A stretch of DNA of 64,000 bases from a virus (lineage: Duplodnaviria; Heunggongvirae; Uroviricota; Caudoviricetes), in IMG/VR virus record IMGVR_UViG_2541047913_000007. One strand, given 5' to 3'. Position numbers and translations under genes: made by a program. Within the stretch, counting starts at the first letter, position 1, and each line of letters begins with the position of its first letter. The notes under the pieces were generated by a model. That model ran no database searches. It was not told where the DNA came from and saw nothing but the letters and a program-made list of their open reading frames with translations. Below are positions 5,828-6,352 of this stretch, piece after piece.

Positions 5828-6352
5828 CTACCTCAGATCACCTAATAATATATCAAGATTATTTTGCGCATTAATGCTATTCGCCATTACTGTTGCTGCT
5901 TCTGGCAACTTTCCAAGAGCAATAAATATATTCTTAAGGCTGATTGGAATTGATGAACCATGCGGATCGCGCCACTCACCGCAAATTCTGTGAGTTTCAT
6001 CACAAAGCCTGAACGCATCCCAACCTCCATATTGACCAAAAATTATGTCCATTGACTCTATTTCTGCGGGCGATAACTCCCCCAGCTCATCAACAGAAGA
6101 AAATGTACGCCACATTTCAACCTTATGATCCGCTACATCAGATATCCATGATTCCCACGGACTGTACTCGTTTTCACTTCCATCCTTAACCAAAGAATAT
6201 GTCTGCGATAAAACGGGTCCTTTGTTCATAGAGAAATAATGATCACCACTAATGGGAAAACCATACAACTCCATTGCTTTGCGGTCAGAGAGATACATCA
6301 GCTTAATGAAACGCATAGATCCGCCATGTTTTTTCAGCAAATACGCTGCCAT
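5828..6352 (-). CDS. Panacea-domain (DUF4065) phage-associated protein, putative antitoxin-type domain
   Basis: 174 aa; N-terminal KLMYLSDRKAMELYGFPISGDHYFSMNKGPV pattern typical of DUF4065/SocA-like proteins (memory-based). Confidence 0.5.
   Translation of the reverse strand: MAAYLLKKHGGSMRFIKLMYLSDRKAMELYGFPISGDHYFSMNKGPVLSQTYSLVKDGSENEYSPWESWISDVADHKVEMWRTFSSVDELGELSPAEIESMDIIFGQYGGWDAFRLCDETHRICGEWRDPHGSSIPISLKNIFIALGKLPEAATVMANSINAQNNLDILLGDLR

Follow-up and report, generated by a model that had tools for sequence, protein, structure and literature searches.

The window analyzed here, a 64,000-nt stretch of viral DNA, holds an Escherichia coli prophage of the 933W-like (Sepvirinae, Stx-phage) type integrated in the ynf molybdopterin-oxidoreductase region, and it raises the question of why a gene for a Panacea-domain protein, of the PanA kind defined by Kurata et al. 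(2022, PMC8832971), should stand without a toxin gene beside it. The initial annotation described an orphan Panacea (DUF4065) gene directly 3′ of a giant gene, its only co-oriented neighbor, and supposed that the toxin partner was unannotated, lost, or concealed in the C terminus of the giant protein. The description was borne out. The ORF opens with ATG and encodes 174 amino acids, the 2,793-aa gene lies upstream on the same strand, the IbrB-like gene downstream is convergent, and no intact toxin gene is adjacent (Table 1). Against Pfam, the 174-aa protein matched SocA_Panacea (PF13274) with an E value of 2.5e-19 and 70.7 bits, above the gathering score of 25.7, which upholds the DUF4065 assignment; the match covers 111 of the 113 profile positions (2 to 112) and residues 16 to 127 of the protein. 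A match to PHROG 1281 (E = 2e-38) was also obtained, and the identical gene is recorded in RefSeq as WP_032144006.1, "Panacea domain-containing protein"; searches of NCBIfam and PADLOC with this protein gave no match.

Table 1. Features of the PanA locus in the window and of its counterparts in related prophages and phages
Feature	Position	Strand	Remarks
PanA (Panacea/DUF4065), putative antitoxin ORF, 174 aa	5828..6352	-	PF13274; shorter than the 186-aa ancestral allele
Former first 9 PanA codons (MFNEEKVA + stop)	6353..6379	-	Ancestral CAA (Gln9) is TAA at 6355-6353
Site of 9-bp in-frame slippage deletion	6295..6296	-	FIKLMKLMYLSD to FIKLMYLSD, in the conserved KLMKLLYL helix
Leader between giant gene and PanA, 123 nt	6380..6502	-	96-99% identical in 933W, 75/02 Stx, and L035
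Giant 2,793-aa polyvalent protein gene	6503..14884	-	LPD5, LPD1, MuF_C, and LPD38 domains; context only
Remnant of lost putative toxin gene, first 6 codons	5805..5822	-	ATGATGTTCAGCCCTTAT (MMFSPY); 5 nt after PanA stop
Edge of replacing IbrAB cassette	5740..5804		Inverted repeat CCGGGGA...TCCCCGG between convergent IbrB and PanA
IbrA (PAPS-reductase/DUF3440) + IbrB-like cassette	3884..5739	+	Pfam and annotation; context only
Putative toxin gene in L035, 133 aa	L035 7176-7577		Intact
L0135, toxin-gene fragment	L003 (phage 933W) 3755-3943
gp69, PanA fragment	L002 (phage 75/02 Stx) 4204-4386

Several features of the surroundings deserve mention in their own right. A molybdopterin oxidoreductase (ynfE/ynfF-like) ORF occupies positions 101 to 1984 (+) at the left edge of the window, the ynf region is also noted at approximately 2000 to 2900, and integration of the prophage into or beside the ynf operon, with partial duplication, is suggested because partial ynf genes flank the prophage end in strain EC2. 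The same ynf site is occupied in four E. coli assemblies, L035 and L037 to L039, whose prophages carry the intact form of the locus considered below. The prophage has a second addiction-type module, unrelated to PanA, because a gene for a type I toxin of the Hok/Gef family, 100% identical to the annotation of strain EC2, is located at 18147 to 18287 (-). Downstream of PanA, IbrA is a PP-loop protein with weak PADLOC matches to the BrxP (E = 1.6e-7) and DndC (E = 4.5e-5) models. Directly after the stop codon of the giant gene lies a G+C-rich hairpin (GCCCCG...CGGGGC; 6468 to 6493) with no T-run behind it, kept at 96 to 99% in all of the Sepvirinae compared, and a consensus scan of positions 5600 to 6700 revealed no sigma-70 promoter and only a weak terminator-like site, which overlaps the start codon.

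The sequence immediately around PanA contains no candidate for a concealed toxin gene. A small overlapping ORF with a ribosome-binding site had been envisaged between 6353 and 6502, and the spacer proved to hold no toxin ORF; it consists of the conserved leader and the former 5′ end of PanA itself, nine codons closed by TAA. When three homologues of the partner described below were compared with the whole 64-kb window by tblastn, nothing was found (best E = 1.6), and the list of ORFs yielded no plausible small gene; an unannotated partner is therefore not supported.

What became of the partner is apparent from closely related prophages. Clustered at 90% identity, the window protein groups with a fully intact member of 186 aa, P0245, which was found in six E. 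coli assemblies (L035 to L040), where sibling prophages share the ynf integration site of the window prophage; it was solely through this member that the complete module was found. The order in these assemblies is giant gene, 123 nt, PanA (186 aa), 5 nt, and a gene of 133 aa (MMFTPYRRGTILAPSG...), followed by convergent accessory genes. A stretch of 894 nt that begins within the giant gene and reaches codon 6 of the 133-aa gene is colinear between window and L035, with 95.1% identity, and the DNA of the window PanA is 95% identical to the intact 186-aa L035 allele. In L035, ATGATGTTCACCCCTTAT is the start of the intact 133-aa gene, of which the 6-codon remnant in the window is the counterpart. 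Colinearity ends exactly at 5805, where homology with phage 933W also ends; the truncated reading frame continues to a TAA at 5777 to 5775, and the segment from 5740 to 5804 has no homology to L035, 933W, or 75/02. The IbrAB cassette, composed of IbrA (3884 to 5110) and the IbrB-like gene (5095 to 5739) on the plus strand, stands where sibling prophages have the toxin gene followed by accessory genes; an antirepressor gene is also found downstream. Loss, the second of the fates originally proposed for the partner, is thus the one that accords with the siblings, which have an intact 133-aa MazF-fold gene 5 nt behind PanA where the window keeps six codons. An adjacent, co-directional toxin gene, constituting a PanA-PanT two-gene locus, is absent from the window and present in L035 to L040 and in 29 other loci.

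The pairing is not peculiar to the Sepvirinae. PanA homologues at 43 to 69% identity are typically 183 to 186 aa long, with an N terminus of the form MF..EK.AQMAAYLL, and the window protein is 57 to 69% identical to the PanA proteins whose genes are followed by a gene of the MazF fold. In every non-Sepvirinae locus examined (L004 to L013), a partner lies downstream of PanA, as a co-directional gene of 128 to 151 aa immediately 3′ of it; with the exception of one pair, the two genes are −4 to +10 nt apart. The loci come from metagenomic and Mixta contigs (L004 to L007), a P2-like E. coli prophage (L008), a lambdoid contig (L009), and the phages Lys8385Vzw, YeP1, Sirocco, and Klebsiella phi12.5 (L010 to L013). 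When IMG/VR was searched from the side of the partner, 20 loci were recovered, 19 with PanA directly upstream and the remaining one cut by the end of its contig. The pair is also carried by P2-like and lambdoid phages and by phages of Pseudomonas and Vibrio, all of them without a giant gene. In L009, a third, overlapping gene (7046 to 7345) encoding a DUF4325 (STAS-like) protein follows the pair; a third, accessory gene has occasionally been described in PanAT loci, and this may be such a case.

The partner family comprises at least 1,191 proteins at an E value of ≤0.001 and is tightly linked to PanA. Judged from the sibling loci, the predicted fold of the partner is the SH3-like barrel of MazF and CcdB. 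The partner protein found no match in Pfam, including PemK/MazF and CcdB, none by sequence in PADLOC, and none among the PDB sequences, whether with phmmer alone or with a profile of 13 sequences; a Foldseek search with a first, low-confidence model of the partner was not significant. In the family alignment (A5), His20, His65, Phe67, Tyr76, and Gly113 are invariant and Asp55, Cys58, and Asp64 nearly so. The invariant residues are atypical of MazF and, on the evidence of the alignment, might mark another active site or target.

Well-known phages of the group carry the locus in more heavily deleted forms. The sequence of 933W is that of L035 minus 6698 to 7095, inside PanA, and 7215 to 7428, inside the toxin gene; its L0135 protein (62 aa) consists of toxin residues 1 to 13 joined to residues ~88 to 124 (hhalign probability, 94.6%), the core of the barrel having been deleted. 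Phage 75/02 Stx differs from L035 by a single deletion of 864 nt, and its gp69 is a fusion of the first ~38 codons of PanA to unrelated sequence. Fragments of the L0135 type make up PHROG 1925, and N-terminal fragments of PanA make up PHROGs 3658 and 28947. Some version of the locus was present in 177 of 5,426 complete E. coli genomes, none of them with the complete module, approximately 18 with PanA only, and the rest with remnants; in ~160 complete genomes, the downstream leader of the giant gene is accompanied by PanA remnants only. Among 50,697 phage records, 73 had some version, again with no complete module, and PhiR5_2, in the same arrangement as the window, was the one record with PanA alone. 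Less-deleted loci of the 933W type and complete modules were sought in the complete E. coli genomes and phage records, and none was found. At least 18 complete genomes and more than 100 contigs carry the orphan itself. In the four locus states examined, an intact toxin gene was always accompanied by an intact PanA, and this order of loss, in which the toxin does not outlast the antitoxin, is that expected for a real toxin-antitoxin pair.

We consider it probable, at roughly 80%, that the window PanA is the surviving antitoxin half of a type II toxin-antitoxin module that lost its toxin gene by deletion and is in decay. The ancestral module would have occupied the right end of 933W-like (Sepvirinae) prophages, directly 3′ of the giant gene, and, when complete, would have consisted of PanA (186 aa), 5 nt, and a 133-aa toxin of the MazF/Kid/CcdB fold (PanT). 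The toxin gene would have been lost from codon 7 onward as the IbrAB cassette replaced the neighboring accessory region, and the antitoxin gene would then have begun to decay because there was no cognate toxin in cis. The partner is presumably toxic, PanA presumably neutralizes it by binding, and the window copy of PanA is probably now functionally redundant. The converse history, in which L035-type prophages acquired the complete module secondarily, is unlikely because the breakpoints are nested and colinear.

The decay of PanA is marked by a nonsense codon, a 9-bp deletion in a helix, and exclusively nonsynonymous differences between two orphan alleles. Codon 9 is CAA in 933W, 75/02 Stx, and L035; the TAA is common to the window and PhiR5_2 and abuts the present ATG (TAAATG), and the peptide MFNEEKVAQ is lost from the window protein. 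In alignment with homologues, the 9-bp deletion reduces KLMKLM to KLM, the longer form being kept in alleles P0081 and P0245. The window protein thus departs from the architecture of the full-length clade (~185 aa, N terminus MF..EK.AQMAAYLL, and helix KLMKLLYL); every invariant column of the Panacea alignment is retained, and the 174 codons are still open. The four substitutions that separate the orphan alleles of the window and PhiR5_2 are all nonsynonymous, an outcome with a probability of ~0.40 under neutrality and ~0.006 at an omega of 0.1 (434 nonsynonymous and 112 synonymous sites), and the counts are small enough to be compatible with residual constraint. Some constraint may still be acting on PanA, or too little time may have elapsed, because comparison with the intact L035 allele gives a pN/pS of 0.26 (nine nonsynonymous and nine synonymous differences) and not 1; the value for the adjacent 3′ end of the giant gene is 0.07. 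Copies of PanA disrupted by IS1 and IS3 exist, and many shortened or frameshifted variants are present in the protein collection, part of the truncated variants of metagenomic origin possibly being assembly errors. An AGAGAG motif resembling a Shine-Dalgarno sequence stands 7 nt ahead of the old ATG, and PanA protein may still be made because the TAAATG junction behind this 8-codon mini-ORF could permit reinitiation of translation; as far as can be read from the sequence, such a protein may still bind toxin.

That possibility leads to the alternative that survives best, namely, that the orphan PanA is kept for use in trans and neutralizes the MazF-fold PanT of competing prophages or plasmids (anti-addiction) or abortive-infection toxins of the host (anti-defense). 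The open reading frame and the conserved Panacea residues speak for such a role, as does the recurrence of PanA in many isolates, and related toxins (~50 to 60% identity) are encoded on P2-like and lambdoid prophages of E. coli and other Enterobacteriaceae. Precedents exist in phage orphan antitoxins that defeat toxin-antitoxin defenses (PMC11825919) and in a PanA that Kurata et al. (2022, PMC8832971) evolved to neutralize a noncognate toxin. However, only ~10% of the loci keep PanA (approximately 18 of the 177 locus-bearing genomes and 1 of the 73 phage records), and it is deleted in most Sepvirinae phages. The copies that are retained are damaged by the nonsense codon, the helix deletion, and IS insertions and differ by four nonsynonymous substitutions to none synonymous, as against a pN/pS of 0.26 relative to L035, small numbers in both cases; no related toxin DNA was found in the orphan-carrying genomes. 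We judge a role in trans to be unlikely, and the same holds for its more specific form, in which PanA made by reinitiation at TAAATG would shield the lysogen or phage from the MazF-fold PanT of rival prophages or host abortive-infection systems. If this were true, an anti-addiction or anti-defense gene would have arisen from an addiction module through loss of the toxin.

It is far less probable that PanA acts with a hidden partner close by, either a small unannotated ORF in its flanks or the IbrAB pair in a three-gene unit. Near-intact copies of PanA in complete genomes do all adjoin the same IbrAB allele, but related IbrAB pairs (~84% identity) are present in 1,962 of 5,426 complete E. coli genomes, in ~1,940 of the 5,426 without any Panacea gene and with the match stopping at the ibrB stop codon, and the intact PanA alleles of L035 to L040 have no adjacent IbrAB; this distribution across genomes contradicts a PanA-IbrAB unit. 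The flanks hold just the former 5′ end of PanA and the 6-codon toxin stub, and two antisense ORFs of 54 and 58 aa that overlap the start of PanA are without support. The suggestion that PanA neutralizes a toxic C-terminal domain of the 2,793-aa protein draws on adjacency, co-orientation, and an LPD38 domain without known function, but we give it hardly any credence, since phages in which PanA is destroyed keep the last 300 aa of that protein at 97.7% (933W) or 99% (75/02 Stx) identity, intact PanA is tightly coupled, at 5 nt, to a 133-aa partner of its own, and the PanA-partner pair occurs in phages without the giant gene.

The locus can be compared with what has been described for PanAT systems. 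Orphan Panacea genes are common, since only about half of DUF4065 proteins sit in conserved two-gene loci (PMC8832971). PanT group T6, which is characterized by antitoxin-toxin gene order and overlaps of −1 to −4 nt, contains pairs from Proteus and Pseudomonas, including the validated PanAT of P. moraviensis, whose toxin, an EndoA/PemK/MazF-like protein by prediction, is a specific inhibitor of protein synthesis and copurifies with PanA; growth arrest and neutralization by direct binding were demonstrated for that pair (PMC8832971). The L035-type pair likely belongs to T6, to judge by the agreement in taxa, gene order, gene overlap, and N-terminal peptide. Like P. moraviensis PanA, the PanA of this clade is a standalone Panacea protein of ~185 aa, with MFNEEKVAQ where the former has MIFSEQKVAQ, and in both systems the antitoxin gene precedes that of a ~130-aa toxin that is predicted to be MazF/PemK-like and has no Pfam entry. 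In contrast, the window has the antitoxin only, the toxin being reduced to 6 codons, and its PanA lacks the 9 N-terminal residues and 3 residues of the helix. The peptide lost from the window protein is the counterpart of MIFSEQKVAQ, which Kurata and coworkers had to restore to the N terminus of P. moraviensis PanA (PMC8832971).

Other known systems also bear comparison. Unlike those of MazEF, Kis-Kid, and CcdAB, the antitoxin here is a Panacea domain and not MazE, Kis, or CcdA, and the partner, a putative toxin, has its own invariant residues and matches neither Pfam nor PDB sequences. The Panacea domain is shared with Caulobacter SocA-SocB, the namesake of PF13274, but SocA acts as an adaptor to ClpXP for SocB, an unrelated toxin, and there is no sign of that mechanism here. 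The DarG-like orphan antitoxins used in counterdefense by T4-like phages resemble the window PanA in being phage-borne antitoxin homologues without a cognate toxin gene, but they are conserved and active (PMC11825919), whereas the window PanA is a recent, traceable product of deletion that is damaged and usually lost.

The window PanA is in all probability an ordinary evolutionary relic of a known kind of toxin-antitoxin module rather than a new system, and as such it is of low general interest. Its value lies in annotation: the orphan Panacea gene would represent one stage in a stepwise decay of PanA-PanT, and "hypothetical" ORFs of well-known Shiga-toxin phages, such as L0135 of 933W and gp69 of 75/02, together with PHROGs 1925, 3658, and 28947, can be read as fragments of the module. 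The locus also draws attention to a large, PanA-linked family of proteins with a predicted MazF fold that is without a Pfam entry.
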